From a virus (lineage: Duplodnaviria > Heunggongvirae > Uroviricota > Caudoviricetes): 35,827 bases of DNA. The notes below the pieces were generated by a model. That model did not search any database. It was given only the letters and a program-made list of their open reading frames with translations, and had not been told where the DNA came from. The stretch lies in the IMG/VR virus record IMGVR_UViG_2534681737_000011; one strand, written 5' to 3'. Of this stretch, positions 1-35,294 are shown in pieces; the stretch's first letter is position 1; each line of letters opens with the position of its first letter. The translations under genes were made by a program, and so were the position numbers.

Positions 1-94
1 AACGCGTTATAAATAAATGTATGAAGGGTGTTGAACGGGTCAACGCCTACGGGGGAGAACATCCCCCGCTTAACTTTTAAGAGGATATAAAACT

Positions 95-638: not shown

Positions 639-663
639 GGGACTCTTCGGAGTCCCTTTTTTT
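639..663 (+). terminator. rho-independent terminator (UUCG-loop hairpin plus T7 run)
   Basis: GGGACTC-ttcg-GAGTCCC followed by TTTTTTT; second of two tandem plus-strand terminators downstream of the 95..379 gene. Confidence 0.55.
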
Positions 664-1603
664 ATTGGCAGTAAGAAAAGTTAGTACCATACATTTCATC
701 ATGAAGCATTGCAGCATTGCGTTTCTGTTCTTCTTCCTCGTCTTCTACATCACTAGAGAAATAGGATTTTCCCTTGAAGGAACGAAGCAATTGCAGTGCA
801 GCCATCGGATCACGCATCACATCGATTTTCACTTCTACTTCATCATTTGCGGCCTCATCAGCCGCGTTTTCAACTACTGCCACCGGAGCAACTTCTTTAG
901 CTTTCAGTTCTTCAATCTCAGCTTTCTGTGCTTCGATAATCTGGTCTTTTTCTTTCAGTGCAGCTTTCAGTTCTGCGATCTGTGCTTCCAGTGCAGCAAA
1001 GCGATCTTCAACAACCGGAGAAACAGCATTCACCTGTGCTTCCAGTTCCAGAAATGCTTCGCAAGATTCAATACGTTCTTTCTCTTCACCTTCATAAGCA
1101 ACCAGTTCTACAACTTCTTTTTCGGTAGCGTGGCTGTTAAAGAAAACAGCAAAGTAAGGATTGCCGGATTTAGTGAAGTTCAGTTTAGCTTTTCCGGTAA
1201 CTTCTTTACGACGACCAAAGGTGATCTGGCAATCAGCGGTATCCTGAAAATCCATGTTAGGAGCGGAAACGATAGCAGTATCACCAGCAATAACCAGGTG
1301 GAACAGTTCAGAAGAGTTCTTAACGGTAAAAGTAACGATGTGGTCTACTGCAACGTCTTTAGCAGGTTTAACGCGGTCGATTGCTTTACGAATGCCGTTA
1401 GGCAGTTTACCGTCAACACCAAAGCCAGCCGCGATCAGTGCTTCACGATGTGCTTTAAAGCCAGCGAAAGCGGATTTCTGCTGCGCAAAGGAAACATGAG
1501 CAACAACTTTCGGCTGAATCTTCTTGTTTGCTTCGGTGCCAAATTTGATAACTGCTTTAGCGTTGGTTACTTCGTTAGTGAAAAAGTTAGCGGAAAATAA
1601 CAT
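662..1603 (-). CDS. hypothetical protein with central coiled-coil and acidic C-terminal region
   Basis: 313-aa ORF; on the minus strand a GGAG motif precedes the start (plus-strand CTCC at about 1612); heptad-like E/K/A-rich segment (AALEAQIAELKAALKEKDQIIEAQKAEIEELKAKE). No family recognised. Confidence 0.6.
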   Translation of the reverse strand: MLFSANFFTNEVTNAKAVIKFGTEANKKIQPKVVAHVSFAQQKSAFAGFKAHREALIAAGFGVDGKLPNGIRKAIDRVKPAKDVAVDHIVTFTVKNSSELFHLVIAGDTAIVSAPNMDFQDTADCQITFGRRKEVTGKAKLNFTKSGNPYFAVFFNSHATEKEVVELVAYEGEEKERIESCEAFLELEAQVNAVSPVVEDRFAALEAQIAELKAALKEKDQIIEAQKAEIEELKAKEVAPVAVVENAADEAANDEVEVKIDVMRDPMAALQLLRSFKGKSYFSSDVEDEEEEQKRNAAMLHDEMYGTNFSYCQ

Positions 1604-1649
1604 TATAAATACTCCTGTGGAAAGTTAGTTTTAATTGTTCATCGCAAAA

Positions 1650-1685
1650 GCCTCCTTGTTGCCGCAAGGGGGCTTTTTTATTTTT
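1650..1685. terminator. hairpin with flanking A/T runs, possible bidirectional terminator
   Basis: GCCTCCTTG-ttgccg-CAAGGGGGC stem-loop followed by TTTTTTATTTTT on the plus strand and preceded by AAAA; lies between two minus-strand genes. Confidence 0.45.
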
Positions 1686-1715
1686 AAAGCCATCATATAA
1701 TTCTCAGTCAAAGTA

Positions 1716-1898
1716 TCAGTAAACCTCGGCGGTAATCTTTACTTTAATGTCATACTTCTTTAAGAGTTTGTGGAAGGTTGATTGATCAATACCTTCACCT
1801 TTAAACCATTCACCCATCACTACATCAGGCGTCAGTTCAAAATAACGCTTTGCCATTTCTAAAACGATTTCACGAGTGAACTTAACAGGTCGTGCCAT
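1716..1898 (-). CDS. small putative DNA-binding protein (paralog of 5190..5423)
   Basis: 60-aa ORF with AGGAGG ribosome-binding site (plus-strand CCTCCT at 1906-1911); shares the pattern RP-x-(K/R)FT-xE ... GI ... F-K ... KK-x-DIK with the 5190..5423 product. Confidence 0.55.
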   Translation of the reverse strand: MARPVKFTREIVLEMAKRYFELTPDVVMGEWFKGEGIDQSTFHKLLKKYDIKVKITAEVY

Positions 1899-2338
1899 CT
1901 TGAATCCTCCTAAATCTGGATTAATGATTTCTTAAAAAAGAGCGTTAACCGCTCACTATTATTTATATGGGGATTGTATTTTATTTTTCAACCCCTCACA
2001 TTTATCTCTTATATATGTATTTATCACAGAGATATGTTAAAATGTTATTCAGATGTTATCAGACGTGTTAAATGTGTTAAACCACAGCACGAATTGCTAA
2101 AGCGAAGAACACGAATTAACCAAATTGATGTTTATGCAATCAATTTAGAAAATTGCATAGCACTTTTTGCTAAAGCGGTGAGTATTAATTGAGCTATGAA
2201 TTGTAAAGATTTGTTACAGGATTTCTCTCAGATCCAAGTCTTAACAGACATATAACAATTTAACAGAAAGATAACAAACGGAAGGAAAATCGGTAAATTT
2301 TCACTTTCAATACAAATATTATACCACATTTTTCTCCA

Positions 2339-2410
2339 ATTGTCAAGTGTAGCACCGATCCTACACAGTGTCAACAAAGGATTTTCAAACCTACACTAGC
2401 CCTACACTAT
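2339..2410. repeat. TGTCAA-flanked hairpin (GTGTAG/CTACAC) plus three CCTACAC repeats
   Basis: TGTCAA GTGTAG caccgatc CTACAC agTGTCAA arrangement, then CCTACAC at about 2360, 2390 and 2401; read directly from sequence. Confidence 0.6.
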
Positions 2411-2413
2411 GAA

Positions 2414-2654
2414 AATTGCCCATGAATTTTGCCCCTGAACCAAAATCCCCTAGATTTCACTATCCCATTTTTGCCCCTGAAACCTACTATTTTTGCCCCT
2501 GAAATTCTGGGAAACAGTGATTTTGCCCCTCATTTTTGCCCCTGAAATGCCAATAATTGCCCCTGAAAATCTAATTTTTGCCCCTGAAATTTGCCCCCGA
2601 AAAGGATTGGTGAGAAAAACTCTTTATAAAACATTAACTTAGTGAGGGGCAAAA
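2414..2654. repeat. iteron array: 13-bp direct repeat TTTTGCCCCTGAA (5 exact, 4 degenerate, 1 inverted copy)
   Basis: Exact copies at 2427-2439, 2468-2480, 2491-2503, 2534-2546, 2576-2588; degenerate copies at 2415-2426, 2521-2532, 2555-2567, 2590-2601; inverted copy TGAGGGGCAAAA at 2643-2654. Spacing is irregular (about 10-40 bp), so not CRISPR-like. Confidence 0.85.
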
Positions 2655-2742
2655 CGGGGAATCGGGCGTGCATAGATATTATATAACACATTCGCTACGC
2701 TCATGTGTAAAACCAAAAACAACAAATAACCAAAAAGATATT

Positions 2743-2762
2743 AGGAGGGCGTAGCCCGACTG
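2743..2762. repeat. 20-bp element AGGAGGGCGTAGCCCGACTG (copy 1 of 2)
   Basis: Near-identical to 3176-3195 (2 mismatches, both in the loop of a GGGC/GCCC mini-hairpin). Confidence 0.7.
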
Positions 2763-2780
2763 CGCGAAGCGCTAACCAAT

Positions 2781-3030
2781 TACTTCTAGTAACACTAATT
2801 TAAACTAGATGATACTAGATGGTCTTAGAAGGAATTAACTAGTTTGCTCGCTCGCTTCGCTCACTCTCAAACGTCTGCGACGCCACTGCGTGGCATCGAG
2901 AATCACTTTTGAAAGGATTTTCTTAGAAAGGGATTTTAAACTAGTTACTAACTGATTCTAGAAAGATAGTAATAATCACTTTGAAGATAATAGTAGTTAA
3001 CTGGTTACTAGATGATTCTAGATCACTTTA
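2781..3030. repeat. CTAG-rich block of short direct repeats
   Basis: Eight CTAG tetramers within about 250 bp; about 25-bp imperfect direct repeat TTAAaCTaGTTACTAacTGATTCTAGA (2937-2965 vs 2997-3026); ATCACTTT(T)GAA at 2901, 2974, 3021; TCTTAGAA(A)GG at 2823 and 2921; GC-rich island at about 2845-2900. Confidence 0.7.
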
Positions 3031-3052
3031 ATGATCATGAAAGGTATTGGTT

Positions 3053-3081
3053 ATCCCTTCGGGATTGCAACCTTCGGTTGC
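3053..3081 (+). other. two tandem UUCG-tetraloop hairpins
   Basis: ATCCC-ttcg-GGAT immediately followed by GCAACC-ttcg-GGTTGC; no adjacent T-run, so not a classical terminator. Confidence 0.55.
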
Positions 3082-3175
3082 TAAATTTCTTCCTGATTAT
3101 TATTTCTTCAAAAGAAAGATTCTTATATTCTAAAGATACTTCTTCGTTTTGATGATGTTTTAATCAAATCTATGA

Positions 3176-3195
3176 AGGAGGGCTTTGCCCGACTG
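3176..3195. repeat. 20-bp element AGGAGGGCTTTGCCCGACTG (copy 2 of 2)
   Basis: Matches 2743-2762; the two copies bracket the CTAG-rich block. Confidence 0.7.
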
Positions 3196-3286
3196 AATAC
3201 CAATCCCTTCCAAAATCATCAAGAATTTTCTCTTATAAATAATATCAGAATTACTTTGATTCACTTTCTTTTAGAGGATTTCCATT

Positions 3287-3754
3287 ATGAACCATAAACT
3301 GACTACCACTACTCCTTTTATCCTTCTGGGTCTGGATGCAGATAGCTTTCACAATGACAAGTTAATGAAGATGTTCCGTGAACGTGGTTATAACATCCTT
3401 TACAATACCGATGAATCCCATTTCTCTAGTGCATGGTATGTTTTCGGAAGAAATAAACGTCCTACCATCGTTGTTAACTGCTTCACCGATGAAGACCGCC
3501 TGAAATACCAGAACATTCCAGCAATCATTGTTCGTGATGACCTGCCTTTCGAAGTCCGTGATTATGACATTGATTTAGGTAGCTTCGTTACTGTCTATGA
3601 ACTGGATGAAGCCATGTTTAACTACGGCAAAGAACCCGCTCAGGAAGCCCCAGAACACGATGAAGAAGATGAGGAAGACGAAGAATACGCGCCAATCTGT
3701 TTCTCTTCTCACGGTGGCTTCTACGGTTACGATGAAGGCTTAGATATGCTGTAA
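3287..3754 (+). CDS. strongly acidic hypothetical protein
   Basis: 155-aa ORF with GAGGA ribosome-binding site; Asp/Glu-rich throughout with a poly-acidic tract (EHDEEDEEDEE) near the C-terminus. Confidence 0.6.
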   Translation: MNHKLTTTTPFILLGLDADSFHNDKLMKMFRERGYNILYNTDESHFSSAWYVFGRNKRPTIVVNCFTDEDRLKYQNIPAIIVRDDLPFEVRDYDIDLGSFVTVYELDEAMFNYGKEPAQEAPEHDEEDEEDEEYAPICFSSHGGFYGYDEGLDML

Positions 3755-4207: not shown

Positions 4208-4296
4208 TAAATTTCTATTATAAATAAAATTGTTCCGGTGGTGATGCCGGAACTAGGAGGACCAAATCATTAAACCGTTTAAGGGGAATTAATACT

Positions 4297-5189: not shown

Positions 5190-5423
5190 TCAAAAACCTG
5201 TTGCTTCTACGATCTGACCATCACCGATCTGAACATAGAATTTAATGTCTAACTTCTTCATATTCTTATAGAATTGGGCGATTGAGATCCCATGTTCACT
5301 AAGAATCTGTTCTTTCGATTCCTTACCGCGATCCGCTGTATAGTAAGCGTAGGCAATATCAGCCATCTGTTCTTGAGTGAATCGGCAAGGGCGACCGCGA
5401 GTAGCTTTAGTAGTCATAGTCAT
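5190..5423 (-). CDS. small putative DNA-binding protein (GRP motif plus helix-turn-helix-like segment)
   Basis: N-terminal TRGRPCRFTQEQ followed by an HTH-like ILSEHGISIAQFYKNMKK; paralogous to 1716..1898. Start may be the second ATG at 5417, which has better GGAGA spacing. Confidence 0.55.
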   Translation of the reverse strand: MTMTTKATRGRPCRFTQEQMADIAYAYYTADRGKESKEQILSEHGISIAQFYKNMKKLDIKFYVQIGDGQIVEATGF

Positions 5424-5451: not shown

Positions 5452-6054
5452 TTATTTAGAGGACTTACATTTTATAGGAAAAAGTTCTCCATCGTCAACC
5501 GACATAAAGAACTCTGCTTTGATCCCGTACTGCCTCAAGCGTGAATAGTATGTACCTCGACTTATATCAACCTTGCGAAGCACTTCAAAGAACCCTTTAG
5601 GATCGTTGTAATAGTGGCTATATCGCACGTTAGCGAGTTCAACGAATAGTTCCCTTGTATCACCATATCCTTTCTTAAAAGCCTCGTTACGATAGCGTGT
5701 AACAGCGTGATTTAGCCTTTCATGCTTAAACACTTCCCTTAGTGGCTTCCATTGCAACCGATAGATCGGACCATCGTCGATTCTGTAAAACCGCTTAATG
5801 TCAAAATCAAACCAATCTCGGACTCTCCGAAACTCTGTATGTGATGTTCTATGCTTCTTAAAGAAGTTGTGAACGTCTGTATAACCATTATCACGGTAAA
5901 ATTCTATTAAAATCTCTTTCGCTTCCTCACGGCTAAAACCAGAAGTGGTTATATCTGTTTTTAAATGCTTATGCTTAACTGGTAAACGATATTCATGATC
6001 GGTACAAGACAAGGCTAATTCTAATTCATCTCTTTGTTGCTGATTAATTAGCAT
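5452..6054 (-). CDS. hypothetical protein with C-terminal HTH-like motif (ISRGTYYSRLRQYG)
   Basis: 200-aa ORF with AGGAGG ribosome-binding site (plus-strand CCTCCT at 6059-6064); the C-terminal motif resembles resolvase or homing-endonuclease type HTH; no catalytic motif recognised. Confidence 0.5.
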   Translation of the reverse strand: MLINQQQRDELELALSCTDHEYRLPVKHKHLKTDITTSGFSREEAKEILIEFYRDNGYTDVHNFFKKHRTSHTEFRRVRDWFDFDIKRFYRIDDGPIYRLQWKPLREVFKHERLNHAVTRYRNEAFKKGYGDTRELFVELANVRYSHYYNDPKGFFEVLRKVDISRGTYYSRLRQYGIKAEFFMSVDDGELFPIKCKSSK

Positions 6055-6141: not shown

Positions 6142-8049
6142 ATGAAACTGATTTCTAATAAGGCAAAATTAAAAAAGATTCTCAGAAATGCAGCCAAATA
6201 TATTACGCCACCTCCTAAACTCCTTCCGTCTGAATGGTGCGAAGCGAATATGGTGCTGGTAGATGGTCCTCAAGCGGGGGATAAAGTTAAATTGTTGTCA
6301 TTCCAAAAAGGCATGATTGATGCACCTTTCCTTGAGAACAAGAAAAAGTATGTCCTGATGACCAGTGCGCAGATCGGAAAAACTACCATCTTGAACGGCA
6401 TCCTGTTTAACCAGATGGCTAACGATCCATGCAATATGATTATCGGACAATCAACCGCTAAAGAAATGTCTCAATATCTCGCGGGTAAGATCCGACCGTC
6501 TATCGAAGCATGTGATGCATTAAAAGACGTGGTTACAGACAAGAATGATCGTAATGCGGTTAACAACAATAACCAACTCCAGCTAAAAACGAATCACTTC
6601 CTGTACATGGTATCGCTTACCAGTCCATCAACCCTACGTGGTAAGACCGCAAAGGTTGGATTGCTTGACGAAATCGATGCTGCTACAGCCTCAGAAGAAG
6701 GTGATCCGGTGGCACTGGCTGCTAACCGTTTAACTACTTTTGGAGATGAGGGTCGATTAGTCGTATCCAGTACCCCGACCAGTAAGCTGGGAAGCATTAA
6801 CCAGCAATGGTTATCAAGCGATATGCGTATGTTTTTTGTTCCGTGTCCTCATTGCGGTAGACACCAGGTGATCGAGTGGGAAAACGTTCAATTTGAATGG
6901 CGTAACATCGATGGTAAGAACTTACCCGATCCTGATACCGCTCGTTATATTTGCCCTCACTGTAAGCAATCATGGACAGAAGGGGAACGAATCAGGGCAG
7001 TAGCGCAAGGCGAGTGGAGAGCAACCCGTGAAAGTGAAGTAGCAGGATTCTGGATCAGTCGTCTATATTCACCTTTCAGCACGATCCGCGCTTGTGTGGT
7101 TGATTTTAGTCATGCGTGGCAATCCTTTGATTTACAATCATTTTATAACACCGTATTAGGTAAGGTGTACGACGATCAGGACACGGCAGTAGAAGCAAAT
7201 GAACTGGAACAACTCAAAACAGATGTTTCTATCGAGAATATCCCAGATGACGTGATTTTCTTGTGCTCAGGAATTGACCAACAATTAGACCGCGCAGAAT
7301 CTACCATCTTAGGCGTAGCGAAAGATAAGGTTTACATTCTGGATCACCGCAGCTTTTACGATCATAACTGTGAACGATATGAATCACCTGTTTGGGATCG
7401 TCTGGTTAACTTCAAGAAAACCAAATTCTATAACGTTAATGGTGAACGTGTGCCAATGCTCGCCAGTTTCCTTGATACATCGAACGGTCGATTCACTCAA
7501 GCCGGATACCGTATTTGCGGCAAGTGGAAGAACCTACACGCGATCAAAGGTAGTTCGTCTGGTAATGCTCCAGTGATTCCGGTTAAACCTACCCGCACAG
7601 GTGGTCATGAATTGCTTATGCTGGGTGTTAACGTTGGGAAATCCGCTGTTCGTGAAATGTTGGTTAGAAACCTGAAAGACAATCCTCACATCGGCTTAGA
7701 AATATCAGAAACCGTTCCTGATGATTATCTCGATCAGCTTTTGAGTGAATCCATCAAGCGTACTACTACTGGCGTGCGTTGGGTGAAAAATCCAGGTAGT
7801 ACCCGAAACGAGGCTCTCGACTGTCTGGTTTATAGCTATGCTGCTTCTCGCTACGTTCTTTCAAAAATGTCATGGGATAAACTCATTGCAATGAAAGACA
7901 GCTTAAACCGTGTTGTCGAAGAATCCGTAGAAGCTCCTAAAACGCAATCTGACGAGCAAATCGAAGAAACTAAGCCAATCACACGACCACAACGTCAAAA
8001 CATCGCCAGACGCCCAAATAGAGGCCGTAGCTGGGTAACATCGTTCTAA
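6142..8049 (+). CDS. terminase large subunit, lambda GpA-like
   Basis: Walker A (SAQIGKTT) and Walker B (VGLLDEID) motifs; C-terminal region with CPHCG ... CPHC metal-binding motifs typical of GpA-type terminases; lies directly upstream of the portal gene. Confidence 0.85.
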
Positions 8050-12387: not shown

Positions 12388-12678
12388 ATGTTCAAATTAT
12401 CAGAATCACAATTATCAAGAATGTTTAAGAGTGCTCCTGTATTTGTGGTGGAAGGTGGTAAATCAATTCGTGCTTATCATGAAATTACTACTACCGACGA
12501 ATCAGGTGTAATGACAGAAACCGAATTTCTATTCTGTCGTGAGGGAGACTTAAAGCAAGGTGATATTGTCACAGTAGAAAACCAGCGTTTCAAAGTTCAA
12601 TACGTTAAGCGCAATGGTGACAATACTTGTGATTGCTTTATCACTTTAGCAGGGGGTACACATGCTCGCTACCGTTAA
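12388..12678 (+). CDS. small virion or head-tail joining protein candidate
   Basis: 96-aa ORF with AAGGGGGTAACT ribosome-binding motif, immediately downstream of the capsid gene; function inferred from position only. Confidence 0.5.
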   Translation: MFKLSESQLSRMFKSAPVFVVEGGKSIRAYHEITTTDESGVMTETEFLFCREGDLKQGDIVTVENQRFKVQYVKRNGDNTCDCFITLAGGTHARYR

Positions 12679-13084
12679 TAATATGCCGAGACTGAAAATC
12701 AAACGCGCCTTGCAAGATATTATCGAACAAGATTTAGGTCTGGCTTTAAACGTAGAACAAACTCAGCAAGGCTTTAGTGATGACGTGGTTTGTTGGATCA
12801 CCGGAATGAATGAGACTTACACTAGGGTCCGTGGTGGTAATGCAATGCAAGCTGAATGCGTTATCGAAATGCAATTATATTCTCAGATTCATGAAACCAA
12901 AATTCATGAGGGTATTTGCCAGATAATCCAGATTCAGCCGGATAACCCACGTTTTAAAGATTTGGGCTTCTCTATTTCAGATATCACTCCAGTAGCCTCT
13001 AATACCGATTATGACGCTGATTCTAGTGATGGGGGTATCGTTGGGACACTTAGTCTTAAATTTTCTTATCTAGCGCGTTTTTAA
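12662..13084 (+). CDS. small virion or head-tail joining protein candidate
   Basis: 140-aa ORF overlapping the previous gene by 17 nt with a GGGGGT ribosome-binding site; position suggests a connector or completion protein. Confidence 0.5.
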   Translation: MLATVNNMPRLKIKRALQDIIEQDLGLALNVEQTQQGFSDDVVCWITGMNETYTRVRGGNAMQAECVIEMQLYSQIHETKIHEGICQIIQIQPDNPRFKDLGFSISDITPVASNTDYDADSSDGGIVGTLSLKFSYLARF

Positions 13085-32889: not shown

Positions 32890-34569
32890 TTAAATTCCAA
32901 ATTCCTGTAATGGACCTGGTATTTCTTCCTCTGGTTTCCAGTTCTTATCTGTCAGCATGTCTAAACATGGATGCAGAACAAGCCCGTTGCTTTCCAGAAT
33001 CTGCCTATCATTGATAGTTTTCAAATCGACAAAGATTTGTCCTTTCCTCGTTCCTCTTGAATTTTCTATTACAACTCTCTGGGTCTTTCCATCGATGTAT
33101 TCCAGTACAAACAAGTTTTTGTTTCTGTCAATCCTGCTACACCCGATCCGCTTTAGAGCTTGCTTAATCTTAAACCGGACCTTTAGTCGTTCCTCGTTGT
33201 AAACATCTTCTAAATCAAATTCTGCGAGCTTCTCCCAGCCTTGAGAGTCAACAGAATACATTTCCTCTTCTGCCATCTTGATCTGATTGTAGAGTGTTTC
33301 ACGCTCGCTATTGAGGGTAGTAATCTGATCGGCTAGCTCCTTCGTTGCTCCTGTCATAGCAGAAAGGGCAATCAGGTTATCAATCTTGCGTGATATTTCA
33401 TCAACCTGTACTTTCAACGCCGGAACCGGATTAGCCTTATCCTCAGCAATCCAGATTTTATCAGCCAGCAATTGCAATACAGCTTTCTCTAATTGATCAC
33501 CTCGAAAACTCCAGTTTGGATGCTCGCAATCAAGTCTACGTGAACGGGTCGCATCACATGTATAACGATACTGGTCAGAACGTTTGTTCGTTCCCTTCAC
33601 TTTAACCATAGCGCAACCGCAATGATCACATTTCAATAGGCCAATACCACTAAGCAGGGGGATCGGTTTAACTTCTTCCTTGTCTCCAAAGTTCCATGCT
33701 CTAGCACCAATATTTTTCTTAAGGTGATAGAACGTAGGGTCATCAATAACACGAGGGTAATAATCCTTTAACTCATAGTTAACGCCATCTACAGATATTT
33801 CCTTGATACCAATCAAAGCGCGGGTATGAAACAACCTTTCAACCATTGCCCGTGACCATTTTGAATGCTTCTTGTTGCTAACCGCTGGTGGCGGTGTATA
33901 AGTCTCGTTAAGGTGATCCAGTATCTCGGCGGTTGAACGTCCATTCTTCCGCAATTCCACAATCTCCTGAACAACAGGGAAGTATGTAGGATGAGGCAGC
34001 ACATAACCGGAAGTGGTATCCGTCCACCACATATTCTTTCCAACTTCCTCGATTGCCACTGCCGGATTCTGGGGATTTTCTTGATGGGCTTTAATCTTAA
34101 TCAGTGCGCTTGAGTTAGTACGATTGCGCTTAGTCTGGCTTTCCTCATTACCACGGATGAATAAAAGGATGGAGAACATCAGGTCCATCGGGTTAGCGGT
34201 AACAGTATCCAGCGAGTAGATCTTGTTATCCATGCCAGTAACAATGGTTATCCCCCTACGGATTATTGAAAGGAATAACTCCTGCGCACTGACAATATCG
34301 GCACGGGATAAACGGTCCAAGTTTTCGATGAATAGCCAGCTACCAACAGGAACGGATCTACCTATTGCATCAAGGAAACGAGATAGCGCCCCTGTTTTAG
34401 AGTTAGCACCTTTAAACGCAGATACACCCAGATCCTGATAATCATTTACCAGTTCTAAGTCATACTTTGCCGCAATCTCTCTCGCCATCCTGATTTGTCG
34501 TTCATAACTCGAACCATCACTCTGACGCATAGACGAGAAGCGAATATACGAATACAGTTTAGTTTTCAT
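32890..34569 (-). CDS. large serine recombinase (integrase or invertase family)
   Basis: N-terminal resolvase catalytic motif YSYIRFSSMRQ and DRLSR motif; large C-terminal extension with Cys cluster (CDHCGC ... C ... C) and coiled coil as in large serine recombinases. Start at ATG 34569; an upstream in-frame TTG at 34584 is the alternative. Confidence 0.8.
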   Translation of the reverse strand: MKTKLYSYIRFSSMRQSDGSSYERQIRMAREIAAKYDLELVNDYQDLGVSAFKGANSKTGALSRFLDAIGRSVPVGSWLFIENLDRLSRADIVSAQELFLSIIRRGITIVTGMDNKIYSLDTVTANPMDLMFSILLFIRGNEESQTKRNRTNSSALIKIKAHQENPQNPAVAIEEVGKNMWWTDTTSGYVLPHPTYFPVVQEIVELRKNGRSTAEILDHLNETYTPPPAVSNKKHSKWSRAMVERLFHTRALIGIKEISVDGVNYELKDYYPRVIDDPTFYHLKKNIGARAWNFGDKEEVKPIPLLSGIGLLKCDHCGCAMVKVKGTNKRSDQYRYTCDATRSRRLDCEHPNWSFRGDQLEKAVLQLLADKIWIAEDKANPVPALKVQVDEISRKIDNLIALSAMTGATKELADQITTLNSERETLYNQIKMAEEEMYSVDSQGWEKLAEFDLEDVYNEERLKVRFKIKQALKRIGCSRIDRNKNLFVLEYIDGKTQRVVIENSRGTRKGQIFVDLKTINDRQILESNGLVLHPCLDMLTDKNWKPEEEIPGPLQEFGI

Positions 34570-34588
34570 ACCATTTCCAAACAAAAAC

Positions 34589-35253: not shown

Positions 35254-35294
35254 AATTGAATCCTCTTTGAATGAATTACGATATATTTATATCG

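Follow-up and report, generated by a model that had tools for sequence, protein, structure and literature searches.

A hairpin-rich block in the intergenic control region of a temperate Escherichia coli prophage

The locus

A single gene-free gap separates two divergent operons in the DNA of a tailed virus recorded as IMGVR_UViG_2534681737_000011 (Caudoviricetes), and the right-hand part of this gap, a 453-bp block at positions 2743-3195, is the subject of this report. The whole stretch of 35,827 bp that was analysed, referred to here as the window, represents most of a ~37-kb temperate Escherichia coli prophage. An earlier note on the sequence had singled out the block as a dense cluster of CTAG tetramers, short direct repeats and a GC-rich island, bracketed by two copies of a 20-bp element; this observation is real, and stronger than originally stated. 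The gap itself is 1.39 kb long (1899-3286) and is the sole large non-coding region of the genome. To its left lies a leftward operon that includes the genes of a 60-residue helix-turn-helix (HTH) protein (1716-1898) and of an orphan protein of 313 residues (662-1603), and to its right lies a rightward operon of 26 kb, which begins with a gene at 3287 (155-residue product) and runs through the large terminase (TerL), head and tail genes to the lysis genes. No feature is annotated in the gap by the NCBI annotation pipeline (PGAP) in an E. coli genome that is 97% identical. Two small open reading frames (ORFs), 3012-3152 and 3172-3297, were rejected as genes on account of frame-breaking indels among relatives; because these indels are not multiples of three, coding capacity of the block is implausible. 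The parts of the gap, and of three types (A, B and C) in which its left part exists among relatives the type-A version, are as follows.

2318-2374, minus strand: two leftward sigma70 promoter matches from a consensus scan, one of them a perfect TTGACA-17-TATAAT with TG
2415-2653, plus strand: iteron array, nine direct copies of TTTGCCCCTGAA at 2415-2601 and one inverted copy at 2642-2653
2743-2762, plus strand: left copy of the 20-bp element, hairpin GGGC-GTA-GCCC at 2747-2757, with AGGAGG on the 5' side and GACTG on the 3' side
2762-2772, plus strand: second hairpin of a tandem pair, GCGC-GAA-GCGC, with the d(GCGAAGC) motif
2786-2845: left CTAG cluster, four CTAGs, with 10-bp phased units ACTAGATGAT/ACTAGATGGT/CTTAGAAGGA and the palindrome AACTAGTT at 2837-2844
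2845-2900: GC island, with TCGCTTCGCTCAC at 2852-2864 and the hairpins CGTC-TGC-GACG at 2872-2882 and GCCAC-TGC-GTGGC at 2882-2894
2903-3040: start of the segment common to all types, with GAAAGGATTTTC/GAAAGGGATTTT and the right CTAG cluster (four CTAGs)
Within 2903-3040: 24-bp repeats at 2939-2962 and 2999-3022, palindromes AACTAGTT (2939) and TTCTAGAA (2956)
3053-3081, plus strand: tandem hairpins ATCCC-TTC-GGGAT and GCAACC-TTC-GGTTGC, both with CTTCGG, then TAAATTTCTT; terminator-like
3093-3176: AT-rich stretch of 84 bp, Krischvirus-like, with a weak sigma70-like TTGATG-16-TATGAA (3149-3176)
3176-3195, plus strand: right copy of the 20-bp element, hairpin GGGC-TTT-GCCC at 3180-3190, then GACTGAAT
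3234-3241, plus strand: promoter-like octamer TATAAATA, 46 nt upstream of the first rightward gene (ATG 3287)

Composition and modular structure of the block

The two copies of the 20-bp element, AGGAGGGCGTAGCCCGACTG at 2743-2762 and AGGAGGGCTTTGCCCGACTG at 3176-3195, differ at 2 of 20 positions; on neither strand of the window is there a further match at three or fewer mismatches, and 100 shuffles produced none. Eight CTAG tetramers are present (2786, 2805, 2815, 2839, 2941, 2958, 3008 and 3018). With a total of 60 in the window, 0.76 would be expected per 453 bp, so the frequency in the block is well above the window average, and no other non-overlapping 453-bp bin holds more than three. The Poisson probability of the cluster is 1.4e-6, or ~1e-4 once window position is corrected for, figures that are to be read with the caveat that dinucleotide-preserving shuffles are richer in CTAG (mean 96) and reached a local maximum of eight at least once in 300. 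The under-representation of CTAG, which the earlier note had mentioned for enterobacterial genomes, holds across the window, with observed/expected ratios of 0.72 (Markov), 0.63 (dinucleotide shuffles) and 0.45 (mononucleotide). The GC island at 2845-2900 (62.5% GC, against 31-41% in its flanks and 41.8% in the whole window) and the short direct repeats (2939-2962 and 2999-3022; 2804-2820 and 3007-3023; ATCACTTT at 2902, 2975 and 3022) were found as the earlier note had described them, and the terminase gene at 6142-8049 is indeed of the GpA type.

The notion of a single element between two bracketing repeats did not survive: the block extends over two modules, and the 20-bp element is one of seven hairpins. 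Homology between the relatives and the window stops near 1967 and resumes near 2903; the segment 2743-2902 forms part of a type-specific unit, together with the iteron array and the gene of the 313-residue protein, and 2903-3286 is a leader common to the family. Rather than one repeat-bracketed element, the block is the right-hand half of a divergent control region. The three versions of the left part are distinguished by their repeat arrays, composed of TTTTGCCCCTGAAA in type A, AAACCTACACTA in type B and ATCCCCG in type C. Only type A has the left CTAG cluster. Variation among 18 type-A sequences is lowest in a stretch that includes the GC island, with three variable sites in 2820-2899; in type B, TCGCTTCGCTCAC is kept and is followed by a different hairpin, ACGCC-TAC-GGCGT. 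The right CTAG block, which exists as a long allele (that of the window) and a short allele with between one and four CTAGs, is the most variable part (2940-3040).

Hairpins conserved in structure

Seven perfect GC-rich triloop hairpins occur within the 453 bp, against 0.18 expected from 1000 shuffles, and nine in the other 35 kb of the window. The hairpins of the block are arranged as tandem pairs, and six of the seven have a GNA loop, compared with one of the nine elsewhere. The GNA loops are found on the plus strand at 2747 and 2762 and on the minus strand at 2872, 2882, 3053 and 3067, those of the two island hairpins reading GCA on that strand. When folding was compared with that of shuffled sequences, z scores of -4.3 and -4.5 were obtained for the two strands.

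The 20-bp element is itself a hairpin, and the stem of its right copy is perfect in 37 of 37 scorable distinct relatives, which between them have six core forms:

GGGC-TTT-GCCC: 12 sequences
GGGC-TTTA-GCCC: 11 sequences
GGC-GAA-GCC: 9 sequences
GGGC-TA-GCCC: 2 sequences
TGGC-TTTA-GCCA: 2 sequences
GGGC-TAT-GCCC: 1 sequence

The loop of the right copy is unconstrained in both sequence and length (2 to 4 nt), and the form TGGC-TTTA-GCCA represents a compensatory change in the stem from G:C to T:A, one that also abolishes the Shine-Dalgarno-like AGGAGG. The flank GACTGAAT is conserved among relatives. Left copies in type-A relatives have a constant stem with a GTA, TTT or TTTA loop, and one relative, L019, has the TTTA loop in left and right copies alike. 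At the left-copy position type B has GGC-GTA-GCC, and the phage record DCP80 (PQ671644), a more distant sequence to which we return below, has GGGCGTAGCCCG; DCP80 has GAAGGCCCGAAGGGACTGAA at the position of the right copy. The equivalent of the 2762 hairpin is GCGC-GAA/GTA-GCGC in type B and GCC-GAA-GGC in DCP80, which is another stem with the same loop. At 2882 and 3053/3067 the hairpins have been swapped for different hairpins at the same positions in other types; the 3053-3081 pair is also found as a variant with a TGC loop, and type C and the sequences L160/L163 have unrelated palindromes in its place.

Since stems are kept while their sequences turn over, in the 20-bp element and in the other hairpins, function is expected at the level of nucleic-acid structure. 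Because both strands fold equally well, folding does not by itself choose between the strands, or between RNA and extruded DNA. The GNA-loop rule favours DNA hairpins, and the CTTCGG motifs at 3053-3081, with the T-tract that follows them, favour RNA. Extrudable GNA-triloop DNA hairpins are exemplified by the d(GCGAAGC) mini-hairpin and by the promoters of the phage N4 virion RNA polymerase. The hairpins of the block are alike in their 4-7 bp stems, three-nucleotide G-N-A loops and C:G closing pair, and GCGAAGC itself is present at 2764-2770 on the plus strand and, as GCTTCGC, at 2855-2861. Unlike N4, however, the prophage encodes no N4-type virion RNA polymerase.

Stem conservation with loop variation, folding in excess of shuffles on both strands and a terminator-like end at 3067-3090 would also suit one or more structured RNAs, such as a rightward transcript of ~400 nt running from ~2695 to the terminator at 3067-3081 and acting in immunity or antitermination, to be likened to the P4 CI RNA, the HK022 put RNAs or the lambda 6S/tR' leader. 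This explanation is very unlikely. The fold signal is equal on both strands, as it is for DNA palindromes, no consistent long-range structure is common to types A and B, and variability is greatest at the centre of the candidate RNA (2940-3040), where long and short alleles exist. Furthermore, the 20-mer has no complementary target within the window, and Rfam gave no match at the gathering threshold across the window and nothing credible in 1600-3400 at E values up to 5. A terminator scan passed only 3067-3081 with TAAATTTCTT; no T-run follows the 20-bp element or any of the other hairpins.

Two roles for the 20-bp element were considered and rejected. A Shine-Dalgarno-like function of AGGAGG is contradicted by the lack of a start codon downstream, by the reading AGGATG in L155/L160 and by loss of the motif in DCP80, and an activator site at a fixed position is contradicted by the distance from the right element to TATAAATA, which varies by ~40 nt between relatives. 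One relative, L183 (IMGVR_UViG_2534682338_000010), has undergone a deletion of ~170-190 bp between CAATC microrepeats, corresponding to ~3040-3205 of the window. Outside the family, GGGCGTAGCCCG together with a second, GAAG-containing hairpin occurs in the unrelated low-GC IMG/VR contigs L170, L189, L179 and L199, among which are a giant-virus metagenome-assembled genome and contigs of 139 kb and 343 kb; in L170 (139 kb) and L189 (343 kb) a ACTAGTAGAG motif lies near the GGGCGTAGCCCG hairpin.

The iteron array and a protein that co-varies with it

The type of the repeat array matches the type of the N-terminal domain of the 313-residue ORF (662-1603, minus strand), and this holds even in the recombinants L006, L013, L023 and L024, in which the segment intervening between array and ORF belongs to the other type. 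Proteins of types A and B have a coiled coil and a C-terminal tail in common and differ in their N-terminal domain. Judged from sequence, array and protein look like a specificity pair, either an initiator with its origin or a repressor with its operators. The protein gave a poor structure model (pLDDT 56) without an informative structural match, and has only two distant homologues among 1.8 billion representatives. On the opposite strand, an antisense ORF of 311 residues (665-1600, plus) mirrors the full length of the gene at 662-1603; gene callers and PGAP pick the minus strand.

If the pair is an initiator and its origin, the block would flank a lytic origin, where binding of the 313-residue protein to the TTTTGCCCCTGAAA iterons would lead to opening of the adjacent A-rich tract (2700-2742), and the GNA hairpins would serve as single-strand initiation or structural signals on the unwound strands. 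Such an origin is possible, if doubtful. The array has nine direct iterons and one inverted, at spacings of 13, 21, 22, 30 and 42 bp, and its A, B or C type tracks that of the protein domain, recombinants included; the adjoining A-rich tract has an AT skew of +0.37 to +0.39; the GNA-looped hairpins, six of seven, switch strand from plus on the left to minus on the right; and the genome has neither another large non-coding region nor a recognisable replication initiator. The lambda origin is built from iterons, an AT-rich tract and a palindrome, and the IncQ oriV, as in RSF1010, has the signals ssiA and ssiB on opposite strands. Direct iterons that co-vary with a nearby protein, an A/T-rich tract and GC-rich palindromes are shared with iteron origins, and hairpins on opposite strands are shared with IncQ, but the hairpins here are far smaller than ssi signals, and no fold could be recognised in the putative initiator. 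Neither a DnaA box (at one mismatch or fewer) nor an IHF consensus occurs in the gap, although such sites are dispensable for some phage origins. One half of the block (2903-3195) is common to all iteron types and goes with the rightward operon, and the collinear region of DCP80 is tied to structural genes, with no replication gene shared. It is just as conceivable that a type-specific repressor uses the iterons as its operators.

Two sites that resemble LexA boxes, CACTGTATATCTGATCAGTG and CACTGTATGTTTAACCAGTG, were noticed in the left part of the gap of types B and C, upstream of the leftward TATAAATA (L003 4050-4155; also L017 and L024), and none is found in the window, which is of type A; from these sequences, SOS control may differ between the prophage types.

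Links to T4-like phages

The octamer TATAAATA is that of T4 late promoters. Copies lie at 8-15 (plus), 1960-1967 (minus), 3234-3241 (plus), 4219-4226 (plus) and 35284-35291 (minus); each is correctly oriented towards a non-structural gene, five in all, that starts 30-90 nt further on, and most have no recognisable -35 element; the count of copies upstream of genes in correct orientation is five out of six. Their positions are kept in all relatives, and none is found in the structural region. The copy at 3234 stands at about -10 with no -35, which is the arrangement of a T4-type late promoter, and does not vary among 38 distinct relatives, while at least four unrelated versions of the preceding 30 nt exist.

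DCP80, which looks like a scrambled or chimeric T4-like record with a siphovirus-like module as its first ~25 kb, begins with 1.29 kb of non-coding DNA in which the same order of elements is found upstream of the TerL operon. There, GGGCGTAGCCCG and GCC-GAA-GGC are followed by repeats of the ACTAGTAGAT/CTTAGTAGTA type (the analogues of the left CTAG cluster), two copies of TTCGCTTCGCTCA, tandem hairpins with TGC/TTC loops, an AT-rich stretch, GAAGGCCCGAAGGGACTGAA, TATAAATA and the first gene of the operon. Collinear with these in the window are the tandem GTA/GAA hairpins, the CTAG-type repeats, TCGCTTCGCTCA, the tandem hairpins, the AT-rich stretch, the hairpin with ACTGAA, and TATAAATA. The TerL proteins of the two are 43% identical, and the only proteins shared are TerL and those of the head, tail and lysis region. 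In the DCP80 record (Escherichia phage DCP80; L001, L109 and L110), rIIA is present three times and the order of the T4-like genes is disturbed, and its siphovirus-like module has nine TATAAATA copies on one strand over 11.6 kb, some of them ahead of structural genes.

A second connection involves the AT-rich stretch. Its 84 bp (3093-3176) are 76-81% identical to intergenic DNA of Krischvirus (RB49/JSE-like) phages, at one to three places per genome (L002 1501-1584); no copy was found in JSE 1-50000. In Krischvirus KFS-EC the homologue lies between tail-fibre genes 35 and 36, with a terminator hairpin on one side and, on the other, the tandem hairpins GTGCC-TAC-GGCAC and CGC-GAA-GCG and a late-type TATAAATA just ahead of gp36. 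Phages RB49, phi1 and JSE are known to possess PeSL (promoter-early stem-loop) elements (Arbiol et al. 2010, PMC2839356; Comeau et al. 2014, PMC4122927), which are ~100 bp in length, consist of a promoter together with a G(n)-loop-C(n) stem-loop, and bring about shuffling. Cassettes of the block resemble them in that a G(n)-loop-C(n) stem-loop, a promoter-like element and AT-rich DNA come together over ~100 bp, in being repeated within the genome, and in their location at module borders; at the right copy, GGGC-loop-GCCC stands 4 nt past a -10-like hexamer, with the first gene 97 nt further on. Unlike PeSLs, however, the cassettes have no strong sigma70-like promoter, the TTGATG-16-TATGAA at the right copy being weak and its -10-like hexamer being changed by a 1-nt deletion in L003 and L006. 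They also differ from T4-type cassettes in that the host is a temperate siphovirus-like prophage and not a T4-like myovirus, and in that seven hairpins occupy one gap, with no genes between them.

These likenesses raise the question of whether the hairpin cassettes are mainly joints at which modules are swapped, as RB49-type PeSLs are, with regulation secondary. Homology between types breaks at element borders (~1967, ~2903 and ~3013), loop variants are common to left and right copies (TTTA twice in L019), the 84-nt segment has its Krischvirus intergenic homologue, and PeSLs do mediate shuffling (PMC2839356, PMC4122927). Nonetheless, this is the least likely of the explanations weighed here: a 20-bp homology is very short for general recombination, all type-B sequences may stem from one exchange event, and the strong conservation of stems and island within type A argues for a function of their own.

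It is distinctly unlikely, as well, that the control region is built in the grammar of T4-type late genes, whether for an unrecognised gp55-like system or as a switch read by the late-transcription machinery of a superinfecting T4-like phage. The features that would suggest such a grammar are the invariant TATAAATA, without a -35, ahead of regulatory genes, the tandem GNA-triloop hairpins and the 84-nt segment in common with late intergenic DNA of Krischvirus. Unlike T4-type late genes, those here are accompanied by no detected gp55 or gp33 homologue, for neither family had a Pfam or PHROGs match among the window proteins scanned, several tail-region ORFs being outside the scan. Were it true, the prophage would sense T4-like superinfection, or a temperate siphovirus would have its own gp55-like transcription system, and the hairpins could act as extrudable DNA structures and not as RNA.

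Possible packaging signals

The earlier note had proposed the GC island as a candidate cohesive-end (cos) cleavage site. In a packaging site of this kind, terminase would bind the repeats and nick a GC-rich core, either the TCGCTTCGCTCAC island or the palindromic 20-bp element, leaving cohesive ends at the head of the packaging operon. The GpA-type TerL and lambda-type portal accord with a cos site, as do the position of the block at the start of the operon that contains TerL, the invariance of the GC island, the highest of any stretch within type A, and the HTH-like GVSRETISR motif encoded by the second gene (110-residue product). In addition, TCGCTTCGCTCA, the hairpin with ACTGAA and the CTAG-type repeats are kept in order in DCP80, with which only TerL, head, tail and lysis proteins are shared, and it is because this conserved grammar is linked to the morphogenesis module that the proposal is kept alive.

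Most of the evidence from relatives points the other way, and a cos site here must be regarded as unlikely. In total-DNA assemblies, metagenome and isolate contigs end within the gap at seven positions (2381, 2637, ~2735, 2778, 2927, 3172 and ~3300), scattered ends that look like assembly breaks in a repeat-rich, mosaic and hairpin-rich region, and four independent, circularly permuted contigs of 36.7-37.6 kb, from assemblies of the same kind and cut at arbitrary places, read through the block; both observations weigh against cos without being decisive. Contigs L147 and L148 have the joined attP gene order of the excised form, with ends in the helicase and Rha genes, and L158 ends in the portal gene; an apparent L158 end at 2891 was dismissed as a storage boundary and not a contig end. 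Types A and B have TerL proteins that are 95-99% identical, yet 2743-2902 cannot be aligned between them except for the 13-mer TCGCTTCGCTCAC, and type C (TerL 77-81% identical) is without the 13-mer. The candidate palindrome is present twice, in direct orientation, in type A, its centre varies from 2 to 4 nt, and its right copy is missing from L183. No ORF between the block and TerL, which is 2.9 kb away, matches a small terminase (TerS) family, and the 155-residue protein is Rossmann-like, not TerS-like. Finally, relatives at 39-43% identity that have a canonical TerS overlapping TerL have no such region, and their TerS has no counterpart here.

A lambda-type cos, in which cosQ, cosN and cosB lie next to Nu1-A, is similar in its GpA-family TerL, its GC-rich core in AT-rich DNA, its place at the start of the packaging operon and its flanking repeats, which here could bind a small terminase subunit; it differs from the block, which has no adjacent TerS, a duplicated candidate core, a sequence that varies despite near-identical TerL, and 2.9 kb of DNA before TerL. 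The pac site of P1 consists of hexamer repeats around a central cleavage region, and in the window four CTAG-containing repeats likewise lie on each side of a GC-rich core. This 4+4 layout is not conserved, however, since type B is without the left cluster and the right cluster has from one to four CTAGs; moreover, TerL is of the GpA and not the PacAB type, and CTAG is not a Dam site. Were the block to function as an origin or a cos site, it would depart from the usual pattern, either without an adjacent TerS or with hairpins as strand-specific signals.

The 155-residue protein (3287-3754, plus strand) consists of a confidently modelled Rossmann-like domain and a disordered acidic tail that ends in FYGYDEGL(D/E)ML in almost every full-length allele, one ending in DIL; by analogy, the tail resembles partner- or clamp-binding C-terminal tails.

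A proposed leader and insulator of the rightward operon

The interpretation tentatively preferred is that the block is a cis-regulatory leader and insulator of the rightward operon, situated in the central control region of the phage. Rightward transcripts would start beside the iterons and would be served by the hairpins, with GC-rich triloop hairpins acting through their structure as attenuators, as terminators or insulators, or as end-protecting stem-loops. The tandem pair at 3053-3081, with its T-tract, would keep read-through transcription from reaching the TATAAATA promoter at 3234, and the CTAG-centred palindromes and 10-bp phased repeats would be operators for small phage DNA-binding proteins that gate the rightward operon. 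We infer from sequence the action of the hairpins in RNA or in extruded DNA, the proteins that would bind the repeats, and the direction and extent of transcription.

A leader and insulator is consistent with the position of the gap, the excess of hairpins and of folding over shuffles, the similar arrangement between genes 35 and 36 of Krischvirus, the strong leftward promoters at 2318-2374 and the terminator-like structure at 3067-3081 (plus), and with the conservation of stems through loop turnover, the compensatory change, the replacement of hairpins at fixed positions, the invariance of TATAAATA and the collinearity with DCP80. Several findings weigh against it. A consensus scan of 1600-3500 found no good rightward sigma70 promoter leading into the block, and no binding protein is assigned to the CTAG repeats. 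Most hairpins have stems of 4-6 bp without a U-tract and would be poor intrinsic terminators, and the GNA rule, with two loops on the plus and four on the minus strand, is simpler to understand for DNA hairpins than for RNA. The spacing from the right element to TATAAATA differs by ~40 nt among relatives, and in L183 TATAAATA survives a deletion that takes out the right 20-bp copy along with the tandem hairpins and the 84-nt stretch. The collinear region of DCP80 goes with morphogenesis genes only, which would fit a packaging site as well.

Set against the alternatives raised in the earlier note, the notion of an origin or regulatory region has gained from the divergent promoter gap, the iterons that co-vary with a neighbouring protein and the invariant, promoter-like TATAAATA downstream, and that of a cos site has lost ground to the scattered contig ends, the variable GC island and the lack of a recognisable TerS, with no test in its support. 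In hairpin density, in GNA bias and in the presence of T4-like grammar in a temperate phage, the region is unusual with respect to known phage control regions. Hairpin density, structure kept through turnover and a grammar shared with T4-like phages together suggest a structure-based punctuation that is exchanged between temperate and virulent coliphages. The prophage family is a common one; its switch, its origin and perhaps its packaging site must all lie in the one control region, and the map of elements provides concrete targets for experiment.

The prophage and its genomic setting

Besides TerL, the structural and lysis genes of the prophage include a lambda-type portal, a protease-capsid fusion, tail genes and an M15 endolysin, and the window also encodes a UvsW-like helicase and the following recombinase.

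32890-34584, minus strand: large serine recombinase

Nearly all non-structural genes of the family are orphans. Its usual integration site is ycdX, and an exact copy of TerL is found on E. coli contigs, adjoining ghrA, within a truncated ycdX; it was this flanking ghrA gene that revealed the host. In the isolate L146 the prophage lies beside a truncated cytosine/purine permease gene (L146 12469-12894; L108 5449-5853), which suggests a second attachment site. Among 5,426 complete E. coli genomes, 58 contain related DNA, as do thousands of contigs. Searches of cultured-phage DNA for near and distant relatives returned nothing except the short Krischvirus match, and the best TerL match among cultured phages is 43% identical; a TerL scan of a genome collection gave no match, and a literature search for a ycdX prophage returned nothing relevant. 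A plasmid search was also empty, and the identity of the element as a phage-plasmid was rejected on that ground.

Some smaller observations concern genes outside the gap. ARAGORN calls a 91-nt tRNA-Gln at 12849-12939 (minus strand), inside the ORF 12662-13084, and this call is probably a false positive. The minus-strand proteins encoded at 1716-1898 (60 residues), 5190-5423 (77 residues) and 5452-6054 (200 residues, at its C-terminal end) have a common HTH. The genes for the 77- and 200-residue proteins form a pair between the Rha gene and TerL that is missing from L146, and the HTH shared by the three proteins resembles those of Hin and of the Sf6 small terminase (GRPxxFTxE ... ST.F..L).

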